63,979 nt of DNA from an uncultured Gammaproteobacteria bacterium (lineage in GTDB: Bacteria; Patescibacteriota; Patescibacteriia; Patescibacteriales; UBA12075): the NCBI GenBank assembly GCA_964459725.1, contig CAYWNT010000010.1, positions 5,739 to 69,717 on the forward strand, given 5' to 3'. The translations under genes were made by a program, and so were the position numbers. The notes below the pieces were generated by a model. The model was not told where the DNA came from. It saw nothing but the letters and a program-made list of their open reading frames with translations, and ran no database searches. Positions 31,114 through 49,430 of the stretch are shown in pieces. Within the stretch, counting starts at the first letter, position 1. Each line of letters begins with the position of its first letter.

Positions 31114-33561
31114 TTATACAACAATATTTACAATTTTTGATTTTACAATTATGACTTTTCTAATTTCTTTCCCTTTTGTATATTTCTTTATCTTTTCTCT
31201 TTCTAGAGCTATTTTTTCAAGTTCGTCATCGGCTATTTCAGATGAAACCTCCACCTTGTCACGAACTTTACCGTTTACTTGCACAACCATTTCAACTACA
31301 TCTTCCACTATTAATTCAGGATCATACTCAGGCCAAGATTCCTTGAAGATGCTTTCTTTGTTGCCAATCTTTTCCCAAAGTTCTTCTGATAAGTGTGGAG
31401 CAAAAGGTGCTAGCAGCCTAAGCAGAGCTTCAATTCCTTCTTTCGGAAGTGTGTCGAACTTTGTGAGAAAGTTTATTAGGATCATCATTTGAGAAATTCC
31501 AGTATTAAAGTGGAACTTCTCAATATCCTCCCCTACTTTTTTAATGGTCTTGTGGAGCTGATAGAGCATTCCTTCCGGCAGATCATTATTTTTTGCACTG
31601 CCGTCACACTTTACGTCAGTTAAGTTCTTTTCTGATAAGTTGATAATTTTTTCTAGAAATTTCTTAGCGCCATTAAGACCACTAGTGCTCCAAGCACAAC
31701 TCTGAGCAAAGGGGCCCATAAACATTTCATAGACACGCATAGAATCAGCACCGTGTGATGCTACAACCTCATCTGGATTGATCACATTCCCCCACCGTTT
31801 GCTCATTTTCCTACCATCTTCAGCCATAACTAATCCCACATGCTGCAAGCGAGTAAAAGGCTCATCATAACTTACTACTCCGATGTCGTATAAGAATTTA
31901 TGCCAAAAACGAGCATAGATCAGATGTCTGGTGGCATGTTCCGCCCCACCAACATAAAAATCGATCGGAGACCAGTACTTCTCCTTGTCTTTATCAACTA
32001 GTGCGTTATCGTTGTGCGGGTCAATGTATCTAAGATAATACCAGCAAGAACCAGCCCATTGCGGCATGGTGTTGGTCTCACGCTTAGCTGGACCTCCGCA
32101 TTTCGGACATTTAGTATTTACCCATTCATCAATTGTGGCTAGTGGTGACTCTCCTGTTCCAGTAGGTTCATAACTCTCAACATCAGGTAATTCCACTGGT
32201 AATTCCTCCTCTGGTACTCCTACCACACCACAGCTATCACAGTGAACAACAGGAATAGGTTCACCCCAGTAACGCTGACGACTAAATACCCAGTCTCGAA
32301 GTTTGTAGTTGACAGCCTTACTTCCCTTGCCGTTGCTTTCCAGCCACTCTGTTATTTTCACTCTAGCTTCAGTTGACGACAAGCCATCAAAATCTCCTGA
32401 ATTAACAAGCACACCATCATCGGGATAACAAACTTCAAGATTTTTAACTTTTTCCCACTCTTTATCGTCCTCAGGGCGAATTGAGACAGCAAGAGGGATA
32501 TCAAATTTCTTAGCCATTTCGAAGTCTCTCTCGTCGTGAGCATCAGCAAAGACTGCTCCAGTTCCGTAATTCGCTAAAACAAAATCAGAAATCCATATTT
32601 GTATTTCTTCGCCATTGGCAGGGTTGATTGCGTAAGCACCTGTAAAGACACCTGTTTTTTCTTTTAAAAGTTCTGTTCTTTCTAGATCTGATTTTTTAAT
32701 TGTTTCTTGTAAATATTCTTCAACAGCATCTTTTTGCTCTTTTGTGGTGATTTCTTTGATAAAAGGATGTTCAGGTGCAAATATTAAAAATGTTCCTGAA
32801 AAAAGTGTATCCACTCTTGTGGTGAAAACCTCAATCTTGTGTTCCGAATCTTTGATATCAAATGAAACGTTTGTGCCAACTGATTTACCTATCCAATTTC
32901 TTTGCATTTCTTTGATCGCATCAGGCCAGTCATTCAGCTTGTCCAAATCCTCAAGCATCCTATCAGCATAATCAGTAATCCTAAGCACCCATTGTCTGAG
33001 TGGCTTTTGCTCGATCTCGCTATCACATCTCTCACATCTTCCATTCTCCAGATCTTCATTAGCAAGCACTGTCTTGCATGACGGACACCAGTTCACAGGT
33101 TCATTTGATTCATAAGCTAATCCCTTATTGAACATTTGTAAGAATGTCCACTGTGTCCATTTATAATATTTCGGATCAGTTGTATTCACTTCTCTATCCC
33201 AGTCATATGTAAATCCAAGCTGCTCGAGCTGCTTCTTAAACGTCGCTACATTTTTATCTGTCCCCTCTTTTGGATGAACCTTGTTCTTGATAGCATAATT
33301 TTCTGCAGGCAAACCAAAAGCATCCCACCCCATCGGGTGAAGCACGTTATACCCCTGCATCATCTTCATGCGCGCAGTTATGTCAGTTGCAATATACCCC
33401 TTTGGGTGTCCAACATGAAGCCCAGCTCCACTTGGATAAGGAAACATATCTAAAACATAGTACTTAGGTCTATCCTTGTCCTCTTTGGTTTTATAAATCC
33501 CCTCCTCTTTCCACTTCTCCTGCCATTTTTTCTCGATTTTTTGAAAATTATAACTTTCCAT
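31114..33561 (-). CDS. leuS: Leucyl-tRNA synthetase
   Basis: 815 aa; HVGHP (HIGH), KMSKRWGN (KMSKS), CP1 editing domain. Confidence 0.97.
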   Translation of the reverse strand: MESYNFQKIEKKWQEKWKEEGIYKTKEDKDRPKYYVLDMFPYPSGAGLHVGHPKGYIATDITARMKMMQGYNVLHPMGWDAFGLPAENYAIKNKVHPKEGTDKNVATFKKQLEQLGFTYDWDREVNTTDPKYYKWTQWTFLQMFNKGLAYESNEPVNWCPSCKTVLANEDLENGRCERCDSEIEQKPLRQWVLRITDYADRMLEDLDKLNDWPDAIKEMQRNWIGKSVGTNVSFDIKDSEHKIEVFTTRVDTLFSGTFLIFAPEHPFIKEITTKEQKDAVEEYLQETIKKSDLERTELLKEKTGVFTGAYAINPANGEEIQIWISDFVLANYGTGAVFADAHDERDFEMAKKFDIPLAVSIRPEDDKEWEKVKNLEVCYPDDGVLVNSGDFDGLSSTEARVKITEWLESNGKGSKAVNYKLRDWVFSRQRYWGEPIPVVHCDSCGVVGVPEEELPVELPDVESYEPTGTGESPLATIDEWVNTKCPKCGGPAKRETNTMPQWAGSCWYYLRYIDPHNDNALVDKDKEKYWSPIDFYVGGAEHATRHLIYARFWHKFLYDIGVVSYDEPFTRLQHVGLVMAEDGRKMSKRWGNVINPDEVVASHGADSMRVYEMFMGPFAQSCAWSTSGLNGAKKFLEKIINLSEKNLTDVKCDGSAKNNDLPEGMLYQLHKTIKKVGEDIEKFHFNTGISQMMILINFLTKFDTLPKEGIEALLRLLAPFAPHLSEELWEKIGNKESIFKESWPEYDPELIVEDVVEMVVQVNGKVRDKVEVSSEIADDELEKIALEREKIKKYTKGKEIRKVIIVKSKIVNIVV

Positions 33562-33859: not shown

Positions 33860-34399
33860 TTAATTTAGTTTAAATTTACCTTTAAACAATAAATCATTGC
33901 TAATTTTCTCAACTATAAGTAGTACAACATACTTTTCAATGTTTAAACTTTTCACAAATCTCTGAATTTCATCAAAATCTGCCGTAGGATTTATCCAGAT
34001 ACTGTTTTGTAATAATTTATAACCAGAATCAACTAAGAAGACTCTAAGATGATTTCTTAATCTTCTTTTTTTCTCAGGAATATCAAAAATTACCACTCTC
34101 CATTTATTATCCCAATTATCTCTGTCGTCTTGATCTTTATGTTTGGCTTTCAACTTGAGTGCTCTGAGTATGCCCTTTTTAGTAAATCCTTCTTTTGACA
34201 CATAGCCAAATCTTTCGAGGTGATATATTTGCTGGTATATTCTTCTTCTCTCTTCGGCGTCTTTTATATCCTTCTCAATTGATTTATAATATTCCCAATA
34301 CCAAAACTTTTTTGAAGTGAGAGAAGCACTTGAAAGTCTCTCTAATCCATCAAGAAGGTCTAGCCAAATACTATCTACAGTTTTCATTTTTCTACTCAT
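33860..34399 (-). CDS. PaaX-like regulator (winged-helix N-domain + Cas2-fold domain)
   Basis: 179 aa; WRVVIFDIPEKKRRLRNHLRVFLVDSGYKLLQNSIWINP matches the PaaX/Cas2 beta-alpha-beta pattern. Confidence 0.6.
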   Translation of the reverse strand: MSRKMKTVDSIWLDLLDGLERLSSASLTSKKFWYWEYYKSIEKDIKDAEERRRIYQQIYHLERFGYVSKEGFTKKGILRALKLKAKHKDQDDRDNWDNKWRVVIFDIPEKKRRLRNHLRVFLVDSGYKLLQNSIWINPTADFDEIQRFVKSLNIEKYVVLLIVEKISNDLLFKGKFKLN

Positions 34400-35685: not shown

Positions 35686-35943
35686 TTAAATAAAGTCCGA
35701 TTCTTTTAATTGTGTTGTAATAGACAAAACTTCTTCCAGTGGATTTTTTACTGAAGGGAAAGTATTTCTGACTAACTCTTCAATTTCTTTTAGATTTTTT
35801 TTTCCTGTCATTTGTTTTACGATAAATACTCCAACTTCATTAAAGGTTAAAACGCCTTTGCCTTGAAAAAATCCAAGGAAACCATCAAGATCTTGTCTGA
35901 TTTTAAATCGACAGTTTATTTTGGGAATAAATTGATTATTCAT
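35686..35943 (-). CDS. PqqD-family peptide-binding (RRE-like) protein
   Basis: 85 aa; PqqD-like pattern (LTFNEVGVFIVKQMTGKKNLKEIEELV); ATGA overlap with rSAM stop. Confidence 0.65.
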   Translation of the reverse strand: MNNQFIPKINCRFKIRQDLDGFLGFFQGKGVLTFNEVGVFIVKQMTGKKNLKEIEELVRNTFPSVKNPLEEVLSITTQLKESDFI

Positions 35944-36950
35944 AATCGCCCCTCATTCTTTTGTTGAATAAATTCATCAGGAGCGTACATTCCACCATCA
36001 TAACATGAGGCTGAACATCCCCCGCCACAGAAATTATCGCATTCTCGACATTTCAAGGGTAGCCAGCCTAGAGATCGAAAGTGAGATAATTGCTTAGTCC
36101 ATATTTTGGTTAGCGGCGTTTCTAAAATATTACCGTAGCTTCCTTTGGCAATAGAACACGAACGAACATTACCCATGTGATCTATGTGTCCAAAACCAGT
36201 GCCCTGCCAACAACCAATTACGTAATCATGGTATTTAGCGGGGAGTAAGCACAAGGGAAAGGCGTCTCCAAAACTGGCTAAAATACCAAGTTCGTTTCGA
36301 ATTTTTTTTAGCTGAGGAAAAACTGACAAGTAGTCATGTAATGATAATTTAACTTGTTCCCAGTCAGATTTAGCTCGACCATAGGGAGTTAGGCGTCCCA
36401 CATTTATCTCATCTATTTCTATCCCTTTTTCTTTTAACCACCGACAAACATCAAAAACTGATTTATAATTATTCCTGGTTAATGTGTAAAGGATAGAGAT
36501 GCCGATACCGTTTTCTATGCAAGCTTGTATGCCACTTACTGCGTCCTCAAATGATCCAGTAATCTTCGTTATGTCTTCGTGGATCTCTTTTGTGCCGTGC
36601 AATGAAATAGCGCCACCAACAATGCGGTGATCTAATAATTTTTTCGCTGTGTTAGTATTAATGTGTGTGCCATTTGATACAAATGATAAGAAAAAATCCT
36701 GTTTATCAGCATATTCTAATACTTTTTGCCAATGTGGGTAAACAAAAAATTCTCCTCCAAACATCCTAACTTCAAAAACTTCTGCCTCGGCAAGCTTGTC
36801 TAAGATTGATGTAACCTGTTCAAATGAAGGATGACTTAATTTTTCGCATTCCATCTCTGCATTGAAGCAAAACTCGCAAGTCAAATCGCAAACAGGGCTT
36901 ACCTCAAAATTTACCGAAATAGGCGATTTCAGACTCACCAACTCGTTCAT
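35940..36950 (-). CDS. Radical SAM/SPASM-domain peptide maturase
   Basis: CDLTCEFC (CX3CX2C); C-terminal CRECDNFCGGGCSASC Cys cluster; start set at Met36 (36950), preceded by AAGGAGAG SD, so it no longer overlaps the precursor ORF. Confidence 0.85.
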   Translation of the reverse strand: MNELVSLKSPISVNFEVSPVCDLTCEFCFNAEMECEKLSHPSFEQVTSILDKLAEAEVFEVRMFGGEFFVYPHWQKVLEYADKQDFFLSFVSNGTHINTNTAKKLLDHRIVGGAISLHGTKEIHEDITKITGSFEDAVSGIQACIENGIGISILYTLTRNNYKSVFDVCRWLKEKGIEIDEINVGRLTPYGRAKSDWEQVKLSLHDYLSVFPQLKKIRNELGILASFGDAFPLCLLPAKYHDYVIGCWQGTGFGHIDHMGNVRSCSIAKGSYGNILETPLTKIWTKQLSHFRSLGWLPLKCRECDNFCGGGCSASCYDGGMYAPDEFIQQKNEGRL

Positions 36951-36972
36951 CTTCTCTCTCCTTGTGTGGTGA

Positions 36973-37008
36973 AGCTGGAGGAGTGAAACTTTTACCGCTC
37001 CTCCAGCT
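36973..37008 (-). promoter_or_regulatory. Precursor-maturase intergenic hairpin (operon 1)
   Basis: Perfect 11-bp stem AGCTGGAGGAG/CTCCTCCAGCT, 14-nt loop, no U-run; between the precursor stop (37024) and rSAM start (36950). Confidence 0.7.
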
Positions 37009-37023
37009 TGGTTTAAATGCTTA

Positions 37024-37149
37024 TTAGCAACACTTACAGGTGCATTGACCAGCACACTTCATTGCAGCCATCCGTATTGGAGTAAGCTGCGGTTGAACGC
37101 CTTTTAAAGTGCTAAACTTTGCCATTACGGCCTTGCTCTGAGATTCCAT
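37024..37149 (-). CDS. Candidate RiPP precursor peptide (41 aa, Cys-rich C-terminus), not in ORF track
   Basis: MESQSKAVMAKFSTLKGVQPQLTPIRMAAMKCAGQCTCKCC; AAGGAGGTGA SD upstream; own promoter; directly upstream of rSAM/SPASM gene. Confidence 0.7.
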   Translation of the reverse strand: MESQSKAVMAKFSTLKGVQPQLTPIRMAAMKCAGQCTCKCC

Positions 37150-41683: not shown

Positions 41684-42895
41684 TTATTCGAAGACTACTT
41701 TTACAAATCCAAATTTTCCAATTTTTAAGATTGATTGATTGTCTTCTTTTGTTAAAATTCTTCTCCAATCTATTTCTTTTTCTTTGTTTATGCTTACTCC
41801 ACCCTGCTCAATCTTTCTTTTGGCCTCGCTGTTGCTCTGCGCCAACCCAGCTAAAACGATAAATTCTATCAATTTGATTTGTTTTTGACTAACAACAACA
41901 TCCTTAACTTCTTCGGGTGTTTCTTTGTTTGAAATCGTATTCACAAAATAATCTTGTGCTTTTTTGGCCTCCTCTTGTCCGTGATAAATTTTTACAATCT
42001 CATAAGCTAATCTTATTTTTATATCACGAGGCTCATTGTTTTTAGCAATTTCATCTATCTCACTCAAAGAAAGCAGCGTTGTGTCAATAAAAAGCTGATT
42101 CATGTTTTCATCGGGTTGAGACATAATTGAGCCAAACATTTTATTTGCATTCCAATCAAGAAAAACTCCGGTTCCGAGAGATTTTGACATCATCTTTTCT
42201 CCGGTTTTGGGATTTTCAAGCAAGGTTGTTATAACAACAAATTTTTCCTTGTTTTTATATCTTTTTAGCAAGGTTCTTCCTGCTAAAGCATTGAATTTTT
42301 GATCACTTCCACACATTTCAATATCCACATCTAATGCCACACTGTCATATCCTTGCATAAGTGGATAAAAAAATTCATGAAGATGAATCGGTTTTTCGTC
42401 CTTTAATCTCTTTTCAAACATATCCCTTTCCAACATTCTTTGTACTGTAAAGTTTGATGCAATATTAACTATTTCTTCAAAGGTAAGCTTAGACAGCCAA
42501 TCGTGATTATAGACAATACGAACTGGATTTTTTTTGTCTTCAAAATCTATAATTGGCTTAACTTGTTTTAGCCATGTCTTAGTGTTGGCAATGACTTGTT
42601 TTCTTGTAAGCTGCACTCTTGCTGCGTCTTTATCTGTAGGGTCACCTATTCTTGATGTAAAATCACCAATCAAAAAAATAATTTCGTGTCCAAGTTTTCT
42701 AAATTTTTCAAGAATAATATAATTTGTTGCATGTCCAAGATGAAGGGATGTCCCTGTGGCATCGGTGCCAATATAGATTTTTAATTTTTCACCAGAAAGT
42801 AACTTTTCTTTTAATTTCTCCTTGGACGGCAATACCTCCTTAACTGATCTAGATAATAATTCATCTATTTCATTTTCCAAAGTAACTTCGTTCAT
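41684..42895 (-). CDS. tyrS: Tyrosyl-tRNA synthetase
   Basis: 403 aa; SLHLGH (HIGH), KMSKS-like KMMSKSLG, C-terminal S4 domain. Confidence 0.95.
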   Translation of the reverse strand: MNEVTLENEIDELLSRSVKEVLPSKEKLKEKLLSGEKLKIYIGTDATGTSLHLGHATNYIILEKFRKLGHEIIFLIGDFTSRIGDPTDKDAARVQLTRKQVIANTKTWLKQVKPIIDFEDKKNPVRIVYNHDWLSKLTFEEIVNIASNFTVQRMLERDMFEKRLKDEKPIHLHEFFYPLMQGYDSVALDVDIEMCGSDQKFNALAGRTLLKRYKNKEKFVVITTLLENPKTGEKMMSKSLGTGVFLDWNANKMFGSIMSQPDENMNQLFIDTTLLSLSEIDEIAKNNEPRDIKIRLAYEIVKIYHGQEEAKKAQDYFVNTISNKETPEEVKDVVVSQKQIKLIEFIVLAGLAQSNSEAKRKIEQGGVSINKEKEIDWRRILTKEDNQSILKIGKFGFVKVVFE

Positions 42896-42963: not shown

Positions 42964-42996
42964 AATAAAAAGCCCAATATACTACATATACTGGGC
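42964..42996 (-). terminator. Terminator of RiPP operon 2
   Basis: GCCCAGUAUA...UAUAUUGGGC + U5 on the minus strand. Confidence 0.7.
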
Positions 42997-43011
42997 GTAA
43001 AACCTGTTAAT

Positions 43012-44076
43012 TTATCCGATTGAACAGGTGGTGTTTGGATGATTAGAGTCTACTAGAATACGATAATAAGCGTCACTAACAATTCTCTTGAATCTACAAT
43101 AATCTAGTAATTTCTCGGACCTGCTAAGCCTTTCATCATTTTGCCAATACCACTTTGTATTTTTACAAAAATTTATCCAAGGACAACTATCTTGTTTACA
43201 CAAAAGCATAGGATAGCTCTTGGTTTTAACATAGGTTTTTATCTCAGCAATTTTTTCTGATATATTATGATTATTTATTTTATGAGAATTTTCCAAATCA
43301 AGTTCGAATAAGTATGGGTCAATACCTCCATAAGCATACTCTGGAATAATACTCGAAAATAAATTTAAATGAACTTTCGAAAAAAAATCTTCAACTACTC
43401 GATTTAGATTTTCTTCAAGCTGCTTCCATTCTTCTTCGGATGGAGTTTTATAAGCCCCATAATTAACTTCGCATATTAGTGGGATTTTTCCCATTTCTTC
43501 ATAAAACCAGCGGCAAATTTCATGAAGCTTGGCAAAGCAGTTATTTGGAACCACACACACTCCGGGAATGACCGGTAAACTTTTGGAATTATACTTATTT
43601 ATTCTCTTAGCTAGCTTAATAGGATCAACCGATCCCCTATCTGGGTTGACTGGATTTTCTATTGACAAGAAAATATGGCTTATTGCACTATCTCTTGCCT
43701 TTAAGATCCAATCTTGATCCAAAATTTTCCCTGCTGACAATATATATGGAGAAGTCCCCACAACATCAAAAGCTTTATTGGCAAGGTCAAACAATCTATC
43801 ACCAAGAATCATAGGCTCTCCACCAGAAAATCGATACGATGTGGGTGATTGGGTGGATAAATTCCAGGCTCTAATAAAATTCAAATAAGCAATAAATTGT
43901 TCATCTGAAATATCATATGCGAACTTATTCCGAGAACGAGATTTAAAGTAATGACAATATGTACAGTTAAGATTGCATCGACCAGTTACTCCAATACTAA
44001 TTGAAAAAATCTTTTCACGGGCTTTCATGCTATCCACGTTACCTATGTTGCGCACCAGGATATTGCCAGACAACAT
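43012..44076 (-). CDS. Radical SAM enzyme (candidate peptide maturase)
   Basis: GRCNLNCTYCHY (CX3CX2C); C-terminal CKQDSCPWINFC Cys cluster; start ambiguous (44076 lies inside a hairpin; alternative ATG at 44028). Confidence 0.8.
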   Translation of the reverse strand: MLSGNILVRNIGNVDSMKAREKIFSISIGVTGRCNLNCTYCHYFKSRSRNKFAYDISDEQFIAYLNFIRAWNLSTQSPTSYRFSGGEPMILGDRLFDLANKAFDVVGTSPYILSAGKILDQDWILKARDSAISHIFLSIENPVNPDRGSVDPIKLAKRINKYNSKSLPVIPGVCVVPNNCFAKLHEICRWFYEEMGKIPLICEVNYGAYKTPSEEEWKQLEENLNRVVEDFFSKVHLNLFSSIIPEYAYGGIDPYLFELDLENSHKINNHNISEKIAEIKTYVKTKSYPMLLCKQDSCPWINFCKNTKWYWQNDERLSRSEKLLDYCRFKRIVSDAYYRILVDSNHPNTTCSIG

Positions 44077-44084
44077 CCTGGTGC
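44052..44084 (-). promoter_or_regulatory. Precursor-maturase intergenic hairpin (operon 2)
   Basis: Perfect 10-bp stem GCACCAGGAT/ATCCTGGTGC, 13-nt loop, no U-run; includes the first in-frame ATG (44076) of the rSAM ORF. Confidence 0.7.
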
Positions 44085-44105
44085 AATTTTAATGAACTCC
44101 CCAAG

Positions 44106-44240
44106 TTATGGTGTTGGGGGGTCAGTCGAGTATGCAAGCGTACTTGATCCAATCGACGCTTTTACTCTCTTAAAAGAATCCTCGAAAACAGATTGAAGTT
44201 TTTCTGCTTTTCCATTATTAAAATCTTTATTCTCTTTCAT
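44106..44240 (-). CDS. Candidate RiPP precursor peptide (44 aa), not in ORF track
   Basis: MKENKDFNNGKAEKLQSVFEDSFKRVKASIGSSTLAYSTDPPTP; AAGGAGGTG SD 2 nt upstream (GGAGG core 4 nt); TTGACA-N17-TAAAAT promoter; directly upstream of rSAM gene. Confidence 0.6.
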   Translation of the reverse strand: MKENKDFNNGKAEKLQSVFEDSFKRVKASIGSSTLAYSTDPPTP

Positions 44241-44295
44241 AACACCTCCTTATTGAAAGATTTTTAATGAAATGCAAACTATTTTGCATATTTAA

Positions 44296-44324
44296 ATTTT
44301 ACAATATGATTTAAAATTTGTCAA
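44296..44324 (-). promoter_or_regulatory. Promoter of the RiPP operon 2 precursor
   Basis: TTGACA-N17-TAAAAT. Confidence 0.7.
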
Positions 44325-44360: not shown

Positions 44361-44402
44361 ATTTTAGATAAAAAAATACTGACCCATGGTTCAGGTCAGT
44401 AT
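44361..44402 (-). terminator. Terminator of 44450..45307 (copy 2 of the 42-nt repeat)
   Basis: Identical 42-mer ATTTTAGATAAAAAAATACTGACCCATGGTTCAGGTCAGTAT. Confidence 0.75.
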
Positions 44403-44449: not shown

Positions 44450-45307
44450 TTATTTTGTTAGCTTTCTGGCGGCAAAGATTCCAAGGCTGGCCAGCATAGC
44501 ATCATCCCAGTCGTGGTCGATTACCAGCTTGCCTTCCTTTCCAAATCTTCCCATGCAGATGTGATCGCCATCCTTGTCGATATCAGCTACTCTACCCTGC
44601 ACATTTTGCGGTGTAATAATCTCACCTGATTTTACACAGGAGAGAAAATGGAGAGCGATAACTTCGCAAGCCAATGGTGTATAGTACTCACTTCCCAGCA
44701 AAGACTTTTGCCTCTTCCATGACTTCATAAAAGAATTTGGGATCGCACCTTTGTACATGAGATGCCAGGAATGAGATGGCTTCTTTTTCACAAAACTTTC
44801 ACCTTCGTACCAGGCCTTTTCATATTTAATAAAACCAGGGTTGCTACCCGTCTTATGCAGAGCTAGCCATGTCTTAATAGACATTTGATCTTTGTGAGCA
44901 TACGTAGGAAGCAGAAAAAGATAATGTGTATCTCTCACCTTTTTCCATGGCTCAAAAAAACATTTTTCATCCAGTAAGCTACTTAGCTCTTCAAGGCTGA
45001 TTGGTAAGGCTGGAAAATCTTCAATTTTTATGTTGTAAAATCTGAGCCAGTCGTTCTGATCGAAAAAAGAATCAGGATCCATCACCTTGCTTAAATCTAA
45101 CACCTTCAGCTCTTCCTCTTGGTCCTTGGAGAGTGGTACCGGCCTTTCTTGCAGTAAAAGCTCTGCAACTTTTTTTGCCAGCTTATTATCCTCTCGAATT
45201 TTCAAGAATTGTCCTGCTCTTACATTGTGTTTACTCAAGACCTCCAACACCTCATCTACCTCCCTGATAGTCAGAATTTCAGAGCTCTTGCTTTCTTTTC
45301 CCTTCAT
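44450..45307 (-). CDS. Hypothetical protein
   Basis: 285 aa; AAGGAGAGGA SD; no family recognised. Confidence 0.65.
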   Translation of the reverse strand: MKGKESKSSEILTIREVDEVLEVLSKHNVRAGQFLKIREDNKLAKKVAELLLQERPVPLSKDQEEELKVLDLSKVMDPDSFFDQNDWLRFYNIKIEDFPALPISLEELSSLLDEKCFFEPWKKVRDTHYLFLLPTYAHKDQMSIKTWLALHKTGSNPGFIKYEKAWYEGESFVKKKPSHSWHLMYKGAIPNSFMKSWKRQKSLLGSEYYTPLACEVIALHFLSCVKSGEIITPQNVQGRVADIDKDGDHICMGRFGKEGKLVIDHDWDDAMLASLGIFAARKLTK

Positions 45308-45355: not shown

Positions 45356-45652
45356 TTACCTGCGATAAGCAAAATTATAATTAATTCCTTTCAACACCCA
45401 CCTCAGCACTGGTTCAATTTTTTCCTCTTGAAATTTATAACCATTGGCTGCCGTATTAAAATGATCTGAGCCTTGAATCGTGTAATGCAAAGATATTATT
45501 AAAAATCCAGCTTGTCCAGGTATAGAGTGAAACTCTATTTTTTCTGGTCGTAAACCAGCCTTGTCAAAGGCGATTATTAATTCGCCTCTTTTAGTTTCAG
45601 ATAAAATCTCGTTTACATAATAATCAAATTTAAATAATGAATTCACGCTCAT
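45356..45652 (-). CDS. Hypothetical protein
   Basis: 98 aa from the ATG at 45652 (GGAG 9 nt upstream); no family recognised. Confidence 0.5.
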   Translation of the reverse strand: MSVNSLFKFDYYVNEILSETKRGELIIAFDKAGLRPEKIEFHSIPGQAGFLIISLHYTIQGSDHFNTAANGYKFQEEKIEPVLRWVLKGINYNFAYRR

Positions 45653-46057
45653 TATCCTCATCTCCTTTTTTCTGTTGATATCTGTATATTCTAAAATGTT
45701 AAGGTGCGAATGGTTTATGTATTAATTAAGCATATTTACGCCTAAAAGTCAATTATATTGAAAATCTTAATTAAAAAAACCGCATATAAAATGCGATTTT
45801 TATGTAAGGCTGTAATTTATGGAGAAGCAAGCTCCTGCTCTCTGCCTTGACTTAAGCTCAAGAGGCACCAAAATTGGCTCAATTTTATTGCCATATAAAC
45901 TAAGTAGACAAAGAATAATAGTTAGTCCATGTGGCAAAACCCCTCCTAGATCCCCTCCTGTCAACTTAAGTAGCCAGATTGCAGTCTTCACAACTTGCAT
46001 TCAACTAGAAATATAACATTAGATTATTAAGGGAACATTAAATTCAGTAAAAGTGGC

Positions 46058-47626
46058 TTATTTTGCTTTGCTAAAATTGGTATATAGCACTTTTTCATCT
46101 AATCCTTCCCTTTTTAACCATTCAATCACCTCTAATACCGCACTCACATCTGTCTTTGTAGGTTTTTTGAAGATGTTTTTAGCTTTTTTCTGTCTTTCTT
46201 CGCAAATCTTATTATTTGTTGGCACCACTTGTCCCCCACCACCCAGACAACCACTTGGGCATGATTTTATCTGGACTGAGTCGAGGTTGTTCATTTCTGA
46301 AATAGCTTCTTTGATATTTCCTATTCCGTCTACTTTCTTGAATTTATTTTTTTTATCATAAAACAATGAAATAGCATCAGGAACAGAAACACTTGTTGCC
46401 TTGTCATTGCTTATTGAGTCAAATTTAGTTTTCTTGCTCTTTTTAAATATAGTGTTATGTTTTTTTAACAAAAAGACCATCTCCCTGGAAGTCAGCGAGA
46501 AATCAACAGGAAACATGCCCTTGATGTGCATTTCGGTGCGAACACTTTCGTATTTCTTGGCCACGCATGGGCTGATGGAAAAAACTACTAGATTATCAGG
46601 ATCAATTCCCTGTGCTTCTGCCCAGTATGTTTTGATAATCCCGCCCGCGGTTATATGGGGCGACCTTGATCTGGACAGGTCCTTGACCATGTCTTGCTTG
46701 TAAAGCTCAAGGTAGTGCACAAATGACGGACAATCAGAAGTGAGGAGTGTAGAGCCGTCCTCATTCTTGGCGCGAAGTTCGTCAGTCATTATTTTTCCAT
46801 TAAAAATATTAAAAAAGGAAGAGTTGAACACGTAGTCAACACCTATGCTCTTCAACGCGTGAATTAGGTGCTCACTAGTAATTCCCTTAGCCTCAGCAAA
46901 GGCTTCATCAAGTGAGGCCACAACCAGTGGATCAAGAATAATTACCACCTTTTGTTCATTATCAGCAATCTCTCTTTCCAAGTCTTTGTAGTTGGTCTGT
47001 TCTTGTGCAGCACTAACTGGGCAATGAAGCGCACATTGTCCGCAAAGAATACAGTGCTTATCCTTGTCTTTTTTTGGTACTATTTCCTGAGAAGCGCCCT
47101 TGCCTGCAATATCAAGATAGTCAATTTTCTGAAGAGTGGTGCAAGCGTCTATGCAATTTCTACAATCAATGCACTGAGTTCCATCAAGCTCAACTGCATT
47201 TTTGAATTTATACATTCGGCGATGCTTCTTTCTATCCTTGAAACGAGTAATTTGTGTTTTATGTTCTTGGGCATACCCAAGGAGCTTACACTCAAATCTC
47301 CAAATGCAACCAGCACATTTCTCGATATGTTCGGCGTAGATAAGCTCAATGTTGATATTTCTAGCTCTTACAACGCGTTCTGTGGCCGTGCTTATTTCCA
47401 TACCTTCACTCACTAATGCAGTACATGATGGAGTAAGGGATTTCCTGTCCTTAACCTCCACAACACAAACTCTACAATTACCCTTGGCACAAAAATCAGG
47501 ATGGTAACAGAGTGATGGAATGTGTATCTTTTTTTCTTGAGCAACTTGAAGTATGGTCTGCCCCTCGTAGCAAGTTACAACCTTCCCATCTATCTTTATT
47601 TTAATTCTTTTCTTTTTTATTGACAT
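46058..47626 (-). CDS. [FeFe]-hydrogenase-like catalytic subunit with NuoG-like N-terminus
   Basis: 522 aa; 2Fe-2S ferredoxin start, HxxxCxxC, two CxxCxxCxxxCP motifs; H-cluster motifs TSDCP, SPCVAKKYE, SCPSGCLGGGGQ. Confidence 0.85.
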   Translation of the reverse strand: MSIKKKRIKIKIDGKVVTCYEGQTILQVAQEKKIHIPSLCYHPDFCAKGNCRVCVVEVKDRKSLTPSCTALVSEGMEISTATERVVRARNINIELIYAEHIEKCAGCIWRFECKLLGYAQEHKTQITRFKDRKKHRRMYKFKNAVELDGTQCIDCRNCIDACTTLQKIDYLDIAGKGASQEIVPKKDKDKHCILCGQCALHCPVSAAQEQTNYKDLEREIADNEQKVVIILDPLVVASLDEAFAEAKGITSEHLIHALKSIGVDYVFNSSFFNIFNGKIMTDELRAKNEDGSTLLTSDCPSFVHYLELYKQDMVKDLSRSRSPHITAGGIIKTYWAEAQGIDPDNLVVFSISPCVAKKYESVRTEMHIKGMFPVDFSLTSREMVFLLKKHNTIFKKSKKTKFDSISNDKATSVSVPDAISLFYDKKNKFKKVDGIGNIKEAISEMNNLDSVQIKSCPSGCLGGGGQVVPTNNKICEERQKKAKNIFKKPTKTDVSAVLEVIEWLKREGLDEKVLYTNFSKAK

Positions 47627-48300
47627 TTATTTTCATAATATTCTTTTTTAAAATATGGATACAAGATGCTGATAAAAGCACCTACTAGAAAATACCAGAT
47701 ATAATCTTCCACAGGAATCCCTAGAGCCAAAATCCCAGACAAATTTTCCAGAGTCCAGGCTGTTTCCACCCAGCCAGGAGAAAGGAAAATCATGATTAAG
47801 TATATCGGAAGTGAGAGGAAGACCATGGCTATCCCGCTAAGAATGGAAATAGAAAGTAAATCTCTTCTCTGGATAAGTATATAAATTATAGCTGCAAGTA
47901 TTCCTAAGGAGTTGGCGTAAAATGAATTTAACCCTAAAACGATAAACAAAAAAAATGTTACCACCGCAGTTAGTAGGAGTGGCGCTAAAATACGAGCTAC
48001 TTTTCCCTCTCCTTCACCTTTAACCTTGAAAAATAGTAAATATCCAGTAGCTGCGATTCCTCCATTTGTAAATCCTAGGATAAAATCCTCAATGCCAACT
48101 CTTGAGCCAAATACAGTTTCCGGCCTCCACCAGTCAACAGTGTACAAAAAACCAAAAGTAACACCAATTATTGCATAAAGTAAACTAAAAAAAATAAGTC
48201 TGGATCTGAACTCTTTCAAGTTGAAATAAATAAATAACCAATAAACGAAAAACAGTGAGCTTCCAAGTAGGTATGTAAATTTAAATGGAATAACAGGCAT
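47617..48300 (-). CDS. Polytopic membrane protein, unknown function
   Basis: 227 aa, about 7 TM helices; sits between the flavoprotein and hydrogenase genes. Confidence 0.6.
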   Translation of the reverse strand: MPVIPFKFTYLLGSSLFFVYWLFIYFNLKEFRSRLIFFSLLYAIIGVTFGFLYTVDWWRPETVFGSRVGIEDFILGFTNGGIAATGYLLFFKVKGEGEGKVARILAPLLLTAVVTFFLFIVLGLNSFYANSLGILAAIIYILIQRRDLLSISILSGIAMVFLSLPIYLIMIFLSPGWVETAWTLENLSGILALGIPVEDYIWYFLVGAFISILYPYFKKEYYENKCQ

Positions 48301-48320
48301 ATCAAAAATTAAGAAACAAT

Positions 48321-49430
48321 TTAAAAGTTATTACAAATCTTAGAACTATCTATAAGAACTTGCTTAAGATCGTGGGTCATATTGATTTTTCTTGGCGGGT
48401 ATTTCTTTACAATGTTATTTATGTAGCTCATAACAGGAACATGGACTGATCCTCCTAGGGCACAAAAGGATGACTCTTTGGTTGAGCTCAAGATCTCAAA
48501 AAATAATTTCCAATTAACATTTTTCATCTTTAGAAATTCATTTAGCCTGTAAGTCCCCTCCCTGCACGGAACGCATTGGCCACATGACTCTACCATAAAA
48601 AATCCAGTCCAATATTTTATTAAATCTAAGAATGAATGGTTGTGAAGACTAAACACTTTTATCGAACCACTTCCCCCTACTGGAGTGTCTAACTGGTCGC
48701 TATTCAAAACAATACCAGAGCCGTCTCCACCGACTTGTACAAAAAAATCATACTCAGACCTGCTATGGCCATGCTCAAGAGGATGATTGTGCGTATTGTG
48801 AAGAATTTCGTTGATTGTAGCGTCTTCAGGAAAAGAATAAACACCGCGATGCAATACATCACCTGTTATGGTGTAGAATCGTTCGTTCTTATAGCTATCA
48901 TGTAATAACAAGCTCGCATCATAAAAAGTCTCAACATTGTTTACTAGCGTAGGAGCACTGTGTAACCCCTCAACTCCTGGGAAGGGCGGTCTAATTCTAG
49001 GCTCTGTCCTTTTGCCCTCTATGGTGTTTATGAGTGCTGTTTCCTCACCGCCAACATAGCCAGCGCGTAATGGTTTCTTGAAAACTTCAATATCGTCACT
49101 GCCTATAATGTTTTTTAATTTTTTATGAAACTTTTTGTAGAATTTATGATTTAGGTAGATTATCCCCTTCACCTCTCTCTCTTTGCCGCTATTGTTAAAA
49201 TTAAAAAACTGAATGGCATGTCTCATGCCATCTATTACAACTTCAGGATAATTTTCCAAGATATACTCATCCTTCTTCACTCCAGGTTCTCCCTCGCTAC
49301 CGTTACAGATAACAAATTTTTTCTCCCCCTTTGCTTTTTTTACTATCTCCCATTTTTTCCATGTCGGGAAACAACCACCTCCTCGTCCTAGTAATCCTTT
49401 CGATTTTAGTTGTTGTAAAACATCTATCAT
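48321..49430 (-). CDS. NuoF/HydB-like NADH-binding flavoprotein subunit
   Basis: 369 aa; GRGGGCFPTWKKW, CNGSEGEPG, ESCGQCVPCREG motifs. Confidence 0.85.
   Translation of the reverse strand: MIDVLQQLKSKGLLGRGGGCFPTWKKWEIVKKAKGEKKFVICNGSEGEPGVKKDEYILENYPEVVIDGMRHAIQFFNFNNSGKEREVKGIIYLNHKFYKKFHKKLKNIIGSDDIEVFKKPLRAGYVGGEETALINTIEGKRTEPRIRPPFPGVEGLHSAPTLVNNVETFYDASLLLHDSYKNERFYTITGDVLHRGVYSFPEDATINEILHNTHNHPLEHGHSRSEYDFFVQVGGDGSGIVLNSDQLDTPVGGSGSIKVFSLHNHSFLDLIKYWTGFFMVESCGQCVPCREGTYRLNEFLKMKNVNWKLFFEILSSTKESSFCALGGSVHVPVMSYINNIVKKYPPRKINMTHDLKQVLIDSSKICNNF

Follow-up and report, generated by a model that had tools for sequence, protein, structure and literature searches.

Layout of the peptide-rSAM unit

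The 63,979-nt stretch of contig CAYWNT010000010.1 analyzed here (the window) carries a two-gene unit on its minus strand, inside positions 42964-44324, in which the gene for a 44-aa peptide is followed by that for a radical S-adenosylmethionine (rSAM) enzyme. A preliminary description of this DNA had listed a promoter, a 5' stem-loop, a Shine-Dalgarno site, a 44-codon open reading frame (ORF), a hairpin, the rSAM gene and a terminator, all of which were found on the minus strand, and had interpreted the two genes as a precursor and its maturase, that is, as a pair for a peptide made on ribosomes and modified after translation (RiPP). The conserved ORF, its leader helix, the hairpin and the peptide-modifying enzymes nearest in fold to the rSAM enzyme support this interpretation, which was nevertheless incomplete, as it overlooked a family-wide linkage to cognate aminoacyl-tRNA synthetase (aaRS) genes, represented in the window by a tyrosyl-tRNA synthetase (TyrRS) gene directly downstream.

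The unit starts afresh, since a terminator-like hairpin followed by a T-run (44402..44376; 11 pairs, TTTTTTATCT tail) closes the preceding gene, which encodes a 285-aa protein. A sigma-70-type promoter, TTGACA-N17-TAAAAT (44324..44296), matches the consensus at 11/12 positions and was the best site, and the sole 11/12 match, in the 41.5-45.5 kb region scanned; promoter-like sites were overall no more numerous there than in shuffled sequences (13 found, 14.2 expected), so that the argument for this promoter rests on its position and not on the number of sites. At the predicted 5' end of the mRNA lies a 7-bp stem-loop (ATGCAAA-ATAG-TTTGCAT; 44289..44272), which may act as a 5' stabilizer. The Shine-Dalgarno site AAGGAGGTG (44251..44243) ends 2 nt before the ATG at 44240, where the precursor-peptide gene begins (44240..44106; 44 aa, MKENKDFNNGKAEKLQSVFEDSFKRVKASIGSSTLAYSTDPPTP), a gene recognized both as an ORF and by its conservation in 53 unique loci, and whose core motif Y-S-T-D is encoded at 44132..44121.

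An intercistronic hairpin stands directly 3' of the precursor stop codon (44084..44052); its 14-nt arms are 93% complementary, its 10 perfect pairs can be lengthened to 14-15, and the folding energy of the region is -32.6 kcal/mol (z = -4.6). The rSAM ORF (44076..43012) encodes 354 aa at most, and its real start is probably M17 at 44028, giving 338 aa, because the first ATG lies within the hairpin, the structural model shows disorder for residues 1-17 and the closest homolog has 338 aa. Translation verified the two cysteine signatures previously reported for this enzyme: CNLNCTYC (43977..43954), of the CX3CX2C type through which the radical-SAM [4Fe-4S] cluster is bound, and the C-terminal CKQDSCPWINFC...C, which corresponds to C293-X4-C298-X5-C304...C327 (43200..43096). 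A strong intrinsic terminator follows (42996..42972; 11 pairs, TTTTTATTTA tail with its T-run), terminator-like sites being more frequent in the region than expected (7 found, 1.7 expected). A single promoter and a single terminator thus flank both genes, and the hairpin between them is a conserved feature of the family, in line with their being one unit. The TyrRS gene lies beyond the terminator on the same strand (42895..41684) and encodes a full-length enzyme of 403 aa with the S4-like C-terminal domain, identified with TIGR00234. As previously noted, the unit lacks RiPP recognition element (RRE)/PqqD, protease and transporter genes, none of which was detected adjacent to it in model scans, and an Rfam scan of 41.5-45.5 kb detected neither a T-box nor a riboswitch nor any other known RNA.

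The rSAM family and its conserved small peptide

Membership of the radical SAM superfamily was indicated by the CNLNCTYC motif, invariant in 36 aligned homologs, and by an AlphaFold2 model (pLDDT 91, pTM 0.88) that superposes on rSAM structures, with Pfam PF04055 scoring 28.7 bits, just below its gathering score of 29.5. No curated NCBIfam model reached its cut-off; the best was pVip NF038283 (37.5 vs 180 bits, residues 28-139 only), and the PADLOC pVip model gave 37 bits over residues 26-140 only, which does not place the enzyme among the prokaryotic viperins. The models for peptide maturases, the anaerobic sulfatase-maturating enzyme (anSME), PqqE and MoaA all scored 20-35 bits, on the N-terminal core only. 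The best folds in the PDB were those of anSME (TM 0.59-0.64, E = 4e-12), followed by ChlB (TM 0.63), and a PDB sequence search matched the core only, with anSME as the best sequence match. The enzyme is therefore not a housekeeping one, in keeping with the preliminary description: no curated cut-off is reached, the family is small and discrete, and the nearest folds are peptide-modifying.

A search of 5.8 billion proteins recovered 90 homologs at 37-100% identity, nearly all of them unnamed metagenomic proteins, and a profile search of 1.84 billion representatives gave only 44 clusters at E<=1e-30, with a break between these and the hits to rSAM enzymes in general, indicating that the family is rare and discrete. 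Only partial matches to the rSAM core, and no family member, were found among viral contigs, and in the PLSDB plasmid collection the family was found only on a Caballeronia plasmid. Literature searches, which extended to TyrRS-linked rSAM RiPPs and to Patescibacteria RiPPs, returned no published work on this rSAM/peptide family; with no curated model and no paper found, the family is uncharacterized.

The cysteines invariant in the 36 aligned members are C34/C38/C41 and C293/C298/C304/C327, while C174 and C188 are near-invariant. The Pfam SPASM model (PF13186) did not match the enzyme, which has just four invariant C-terminal Cys and not the seven of the SPASM motif CX9-15GX4C...CX2CX5CX3C...C. 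This pattern argues for one auxiliary Fe-S cluster, plausibly a single twitch-like cluster bound by those four residues, and not for a canonical seven-Cys SPASM domain. The unit had also been described as unrelated to another rSAM operon in the window, presumably that of a minus-strand gene at 35940-37055 that encodes a second rSAM enzyme with a Pfam SPASM domain (PF04055, 69 bits; PF13186, 25 bits); the two enzymes are indeed just 22% identical, over the core. In some Bacilli and Clostridia (L017:5968-6744, L024:6004-6777 on the minus strand, L025 and L106), a second small rSAM of ~257 aa with PF04055 and Fer4_12 adjoins the maturase.

A small ORF of 25-97 aa (median 40) was located directly upstream of the rSAM gene in 53 non-redundant loci, which span at least seven phylum-level groups, and in all of these a C-terminal core and a leader helix were kept, so that the conservation of the small ORF in homologous neighborhoods was borne out. 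The C-terminal motif is (L/I)-A-[Y/W]-S-[T/S/x]-D: counted around the aromatic residue (n = 53), position -2 is L/I in 36, position -1 is A in 29, S in 8 and G in 4, position 0 is Y in 48 and W in 5, position +1 is S in 52 and C in 1, position +2 is T in 36, S in 6, W in 3, V in 2, I in 2 and others in the remainder, and position +3 is D in 42, with 0-7 residues between the motif and the stop codon. The leader helix K-A-x-x-L-x-x-x-Φ-x-x-x-F is conserved ~22-28 residues upstream. In the window peptide, KAEKLQSVFEDSF makes up the leader helix and L35-A-Y37-S38-T39-D40-PPTP the core, of which Y-S-T-D is the probable modification site. The peptide had been said to match no recognized family, in agreement with the lack of matches in Pfam, NCBIfam and PADLOC.

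The family likewise tends to have a stable hairpin directly 3' of the precursor stop codon (z < -2 in 27/41 homologous loci, median z = -3.4), often with a T-run but without conservation of the hairpin sequence. A hairpin between precursor and enzyme genes is a classic stoichiometry device of RiPP operons, and the one in the window may be an attenuator or a processing/stability element that sets the ratio of precursor to enzyme. The small ORF is therefore a real, selected gene, the two genes form a precursor-maturase unit, and the 44-residue peptide gene with its rSAM gene is supported as a real, conserved RiPP pair. A motif search at the most distant loci (25-40% identity; e.g. L070, L083, L105, L112-L115) found no precursors. 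In one distant subgroup (L086:1369-2997, L099:3941-5568 and L092:3941-5571; 33-38% identity), the peptide ends in ...VEISTM, ...VEISVK or ...GMSTN, with an aliphatic residue where Tyr stands elsewhere, and a phosphoribosyltransferase-domain protein (PF00156) is always encoded 3', accompanied at L086 by a 1008-aa RelA/SpoT-domain protein.

Linkage to cognate aminoacyl-tRNA synthetase genes

Neighboring ORFs were clustered in 26 loci, and tblastn was then run over 93 loci, which at 90% identity collapse into 66 non-redundant groups. In 63 of these, the rSAM is >=30% identical to that of the window. A TyrRS gene was present within ~0.03-3 kb of the cassette in 28/63 groups, upstream or downstream and on either strand. 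The hosts of these loci are Patescibacteria of the Candidate Phyla Radiation (CPR; Moranbacteria, Paceibacterota and Parcubacteria), Pseudobdellovibrionaceae, Micavibrio, Larkinella (Bacteroidota), Alpha- and Gammaproteobacteria, Bacilli and Clostridia. If a TyrRS gene is allowed to adjoin a locus by chance in 1.2% of cases, which is generous, this linkage has a binomial probability of ~1e-40, a figure inflated by relatedness, though the arrangements vary by lineage.

The type of synthetase covaries with the aromatic residue of the peptide. A tryptophanyl-tRNA synthetase (TrpRS) gene without TyrRS was found at two loci only (TIGR00233, 258 and 296 bits vs cut-off 177), and both carry W-S-W peptides, ending in SVSWSWAE and PCWSWD. 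All 28 TyrRS-linked groups have Y at the aromatic position and 2/2 TrpRS-only loci have W (Fisher's exact p = 0.0023). The rSAM enzymes of the two TrpRS loci are 49% identical to each other, and their nearest relatives are from TyrRS-linked Tyr loci (51-60% identity), indicating that the peptide residue and the aaRS type changed together inside the Tyr clade.

Several of the linked TyrRS genes are unusual. Two occur in tandem at one Paceibacterota locus (L003), and in three lineages the TyrRS has 304-337 aa and lacks the S4-like C-terminal tRNA-binding domain. At L009, the sole truncated-TyrRS locus read through for it, no separate ORF for such a domain was found. The Moranbacteria lineage (L007/L009/L052) is the only truncated one that was aligned against close TyrRS homologs, and there ~10 changes were seen at otherwise invariant sites, among them MQGYDS to MQGWDS, next to the tyrosine-binding Asp. 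The truncated copies of the three lineages cannot be the working TyrRS. At three loci (L022 from Butyribacter intestini, L080 and L089), a PheRS-β-type B3_4 editing domain is fused in frame with the TyrRS, a fusion that gene callers split into two proteins in Butyribacter; only four relatives of this B3_4 domain were found, and two short contigs were uninformative.

Other loci lack a synthetase. In clostridial loci without aaRS (10-12 groups, with the same AYSTD core), a major facilitator superfamily (MFS) transporter gene stands directly 3' of the rSAM gene, and since this core occurs with or without aaRS, the synthetase is not needed to make the core or its product. Two loci, L077:4999-8296 (W-S-S-D) and L035:6063-9698 (Y-S-S-D), whose rSAMs are 55% identical, encode a ~700-aa protein without Pfam match and then an MFS transporter. 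The cassette is also carried by plasmids: at L005/L006 (3681-5098; also L057 and L058) it is inserted in an IncP-1-type conjugative backbone, ordered kleE-korA-incC-korB ... kfrA-kfrB-traM, with korB on one side and kfrA on the other, and its precursor of 80 aa ends in ...LSYSTDLSE.

These distributions bear on two accounts in which the synthetase is not the target of a peptide product. In the first, the small ORF would not be a substrate at all; it would be a leader or regulatory peptide, and the rSAM enzyme would modify tRNA-Tyr or TyrRS, as may be suggested by its adjoining a TyrRS gene and by the existence of rSAM enzymes that modify tRNA. We consider this very improbable, given that the ORF shows amino-acid-level conservation of its C-terminal residues in different phyla, with changes that go together with the aaRS type, that the nearest folds belong to peptide- or protein-modifying enzymes, and that many loci have no aaRS nearby. 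In the second, to which we give a low probability, the aaRS would be a biosynthetic or regulatory partner, activating Tyr, Trp or the peptide as an adenylate, supplying aminoacyl-tRNA, or being regulated by the peptide in the producer to throttle translation. The truncated TyrRS copies are without the tRNA-binding domain but still have the catalytic one that forms adenylates, aaRS genes do occur in biosynthetic gene clusters (BGCs) with tRNA-dependent steps such as that for valanimycin, and an intracellular role is conceivable as the window has no exporter. Set against this, the same AYSTD core is found in MFS-linked and plasmid loci without linked aaRS, the aromatic residue is already encoded in the peptide, and a truncated TyrRS cannot supply Tyr-tRNA. 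Attenuation of tyrS by a Tyr-codon leader peptide was also considered and rejected, since the ORF has a single Tyr codon and is separated from tyrS by the enzyme gene and a terminator, and since the orientation is not the same at all loci.

Proposed product, target and self-protection

In the mechanism that we propose, the strong promoter would drive a short mRNA whose first cistron, with its consensus Shine-Dalgarno site, would provide the 44-aa precursor, and the stable hairpin 3' of the stop codon would probably keep precursor mRNA in excess over enzyme mRNA. The rSAM enzyme, which has no RRE, would probably bind the amphipathic leader helix KAxxLxxxΦxxxF directly, and its hydrogen abstraction would then take place in the core (L/I)-A-Y-S-T-D. 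The product could be a three-residue cyclophane (Tyr to Cβ of the +2 residue) or an ether ring, as in triceptides and daropeptides, an option suggested by the fit of the motif to Ω1-X2-X3 and Ω1-X2-Ω3 and by the resemblance of the fold to ChlB. Alternatively, the Ser at +1 could be oxidized as with anSME, an option suggested by anSME being the best fold match and by one natural Ser-to-Cys variant (AYCMAG, L066). Both cyclophane formation and Ser oxidation give -2 Da. New rSAM chemistry is likely, because the four-Cys auxiliary domain is unusual and the Tyr-Ser dyad near-invariant.

The window pair shares with the triceptide and daropeptide systems (ChlB, XyeB, YhhB, MicB and DarE) a small precursor and a single rSAM maturase. 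In triceptides, a C-C crosslink joins an aromatic ring to the Cβ of the +2 residue (-2 Da), and ChlB is a three-residue cyclophane synthase whose structure has been solved with the precursor leader. The core of the window family, with Y or W at position 0 in 53/53 loci, reads aromatic-X-X (Y-S-T, W-S-S) or aromatic-X-aromatic (W-S-W), which corresponds to the triceptide forms Ω1-X2-X3 and Ω1-X2-Ω3, and the triceptide precursor MicA contains Y-S-K. However, the window rSAM scored far below the models for three-residue cyclophane-forming enzymes (XyeB TIGR04496, 23.6 vs 450 bits; YhhB NF041707, 28.1 vs 445), and its likeness to ChlB is moderate (TM 0.63). Moreover, the Ser at X2, a position left unspecified in the triceptide motif as described, is near-invariant in the window family (52/53), whose peptides have a single motif and whose enzymes have four conserved C-terminal Cys and no Pfam SPASM; linkage to aaRS is not mentioned in the triceptide literature examined.

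The best structural match, anSME (PDB 4K36-4K39), acts on the Cβ-H of Ser or Cys in a peptide, and the window family has a near-invariant Ser and the one natural Cys variant mentioned above. The two differ in that TIGR03942 gave 28.8 bits against a cut-off of 349.45, the (C/S)-x-(P/A)-x-R motif is absent and the core is A-Y-S-T-D; in addition, the SPASM domain of anSME is complete, with two auxiliary clusters, and the substrate of anSME is a sulfatase, whereas that of the window family would be a dedicated small peptide.

A further likeness is to the pathways for pyrroloquinoline quinone (PQQ) and mycofactocin (PqqA/PqqE and MftA/MftC), in which a small peptide with a Tyr-containing C-terminal core is modified by an rSAM enzyme. 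The window peptide could accordingly be pictured as a scaffold from which a small redox cofactor or metabolite is made out of Tyr or Trp, rather than as a bioactive peptide, and both the C-terminal position of the core (0-7 residues follow the motif, as in PqqA and MftA) and the minimal unit without exporter would fit. There is little to recommend this view, which we rate as remote: no PqqD/RRE, peptidase or oxidase neighbors were found in the window or related loci, PqqE (TIGR02109, 21.5 vs 381 bits) and related models scored far below their cut-offs, and the aaRS linkage, MFS pumps and plasmid carriage would be left unexplained.

Two known systems offer analogies for a synthetase-directed product. 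In microcin C, a very small precursor gene is followed by a hairpin/terminator that limits read-through into the enzyme genes, an arrangement shared by the window unit, and the product is a Trojan-horse aaRS inhibitor whose specificity derives from a precursor residue. Its MccB enzyme adenylates and is not an rSAM, and its immunity relies on acetylation or a peptidase, none of those genes being present at the window unit. The tiarins are trifolitoxin-like RiPP inhibitors of aaRS, trifolitoxin itself inhibiting ArgRS; the specificity of the aaRS in each BGC corresponds to the residue before a conserved Gln, the resistant BGC aaRS confers immunity, other BGCs use other immunity genes, and a second, housekeeping copy of the aaRS was shown in every tiarin genome (bioRxiv 10.64898/2025.12.02.691738). 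The window family resembles them in that the cluster aaRS matches the precursor residue immediately before an invariant residue. The analogy is in logic only: tiarins involve no rSAM and entirely different enzymes, the window cassette is not of the tfx type, the invariant residue is Gln there and Ser here, and inhibition has been demonstrated for trifolitoxin, while for the window family we only infer it.

An aaRS-directed product is proposed because the cassette is linked to the aaRS cognate to the aromatic core residue. As in tiarins, a resistant target or a pump would alternate and the aaRS specificity tracks one precursor residue, from which we propose that the modified peptide, or a proteolytic fragment starting at the aromatic residue (Tyr37), would act on the cognate synthetase, here TyrRS, as an inhibitor or antimetabolite. 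The adjacent aaRS would then serve in self-protection as a resistant, decoy or editing-fused copy, a role that in Clostridia would be taken by the MFS exporter. By analogy with tiarins and microcin C, the reading that we prefer, at about even odds, is that the RiPP made by the cassette targets the cognate aaRS and that the neighboring aaRS or pump protects the producer. The wider proposal is more tentative, and we place it somewhat below even: these rSAM-made RiPPs might form a previously unrecognized class of programmable aaRS-directed antimetabolites, in which the aromatic residue before the invariant Ser would set the target (Tyr for TyrRS, Trp for TrpRS). Producers would be protected either by an MFS pump or by a linked synthetase that is resistant, serves as a decoy without its tRNA domain or is fused to an editing domain, and horizontal transfer would have carried the class between CPR/Patescibacteria, gut Clostridia, predatory bacteria and plasmids of the IncP-1 type.

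A number of observations weigh against an aaRS target, several of them from the window itself. The window TyrRS (TIGR00234, 341 bits vs cut-off 113.8) is an ordinary Moranbacteria-type enzyme with thousands of homologs, the top matches being 72-83% identical; no resistance-type substitutions were seen in it, the consensus residue being present at every highly conserved column examined, and a terminator separates its gene from the rSAM gene. The cassette was absent beside 5/5 of its closest homologs checked, three of which lie ahead of PheRS genes, and its membership in a cassette-specific TyrRS clade was therefore rejected; judged by its sequence, it looks like an ordinary lineage copy. The window has no export or processing genes. 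Elsewhere, neither an aaRS nor a pump is encoded within ~4 kb of the closest relative of the rSAM enzyme (L050, 74% identity, core LAYSTDPPNP), and the copies at L013 and on the IncP-1-like and Caballeronia plasmids likewise have neither. The Trp/TrpRS rule rests on two loci, and the pairwise identities of TyrRS show little correlation with those of rSAM (Spearman 0.05), indicating that the TyrRS mostly tracks the host lineage.

Such observations would suit a genuine RiPP pair with some other role, as a signal or as an antimicrobial with a non-aaRS target, next to which the TyrRS would reflect an insertion-site preference, co-regulation or hitch-hiking. Besides the ordinary window TyrRS in its own transcription unit, the relatives and plasmid copies without aaRS, and the dependence of TyrRS on host lineage, a hint of signaling may be seen in two proteobacterial loci with the variant cores AYSYSA and AYCMAG (L062:5290-8119 and L066:5171-8039), where a CHASE-PAS histidine kinase and a LuxR-type response regulator are encoded directly 3' of the cassette. 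We nonetheless regard this account as unlikely, since the adjacency recurs in all orientations and positions across phyla (p ~1e-40), the aaRS type becomes TrpRS exactly where the peptide becomes W-S-W, and truncated, duplicated and B3_4-fused TyrRS are unlike chance neighbors.

If the link to aaRS is functional, the cassette would be a new way of making synthetase-directed peptides, very compact at ~1.3 kb and with the target chosen by a simple rule that can be read from the sequence, and the first rSAM-dependent case of such a peptide found in our literature searches. Ultra-small CPR bacteria, about whose secondary metabolism very little is known, would also have a biosynthetic locus with a definite function in competition or in interaction with a host, and target-based self-protection would have new examples in the truncated and B3_4-fused TyrRS. 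Even without an aaRS role, the pair is a clean, conserved and uncharacterized precursor-maturase unit.

Some minor observations concern the TyrRS relatives and the other genes of the window. The TyrRS nearest to that of the window (82-83% identity) are split, with a catalytic ORF of 300-306 aa and a 77-aa S4-domain ORF, and no cassette is nearby (L133:4001-5209 and L134:4001-5156). The two minus-strand genes upstream of the cassette, 44450-45307 (285 aa) and 45356-45661 (101 aa), have no match in Pfam, NCBIfam or PADLOC and are not conserved beside the cassette elsewhere. Further upstream on the same strand, 46058-49430 encodes an [FeFe]-hydrogenase-like large-subunit protein (Fer2_4, 4Fe-4S, Fe_hyd_lg_C) near a Nuo51-like flavin mononucleotide/4Fe-4S protein, with a lycopene-cyclase-domain protein between them. 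The minus strand also carries genes for a type IV secretion system pilin-like protein (PF18895; 37322-37795) and for a protein with a PaaX central Cas2-like domain (33860-34399), and a gene for leucyl-tRNA synthetase (LeuRS) lies at 31114-33561.

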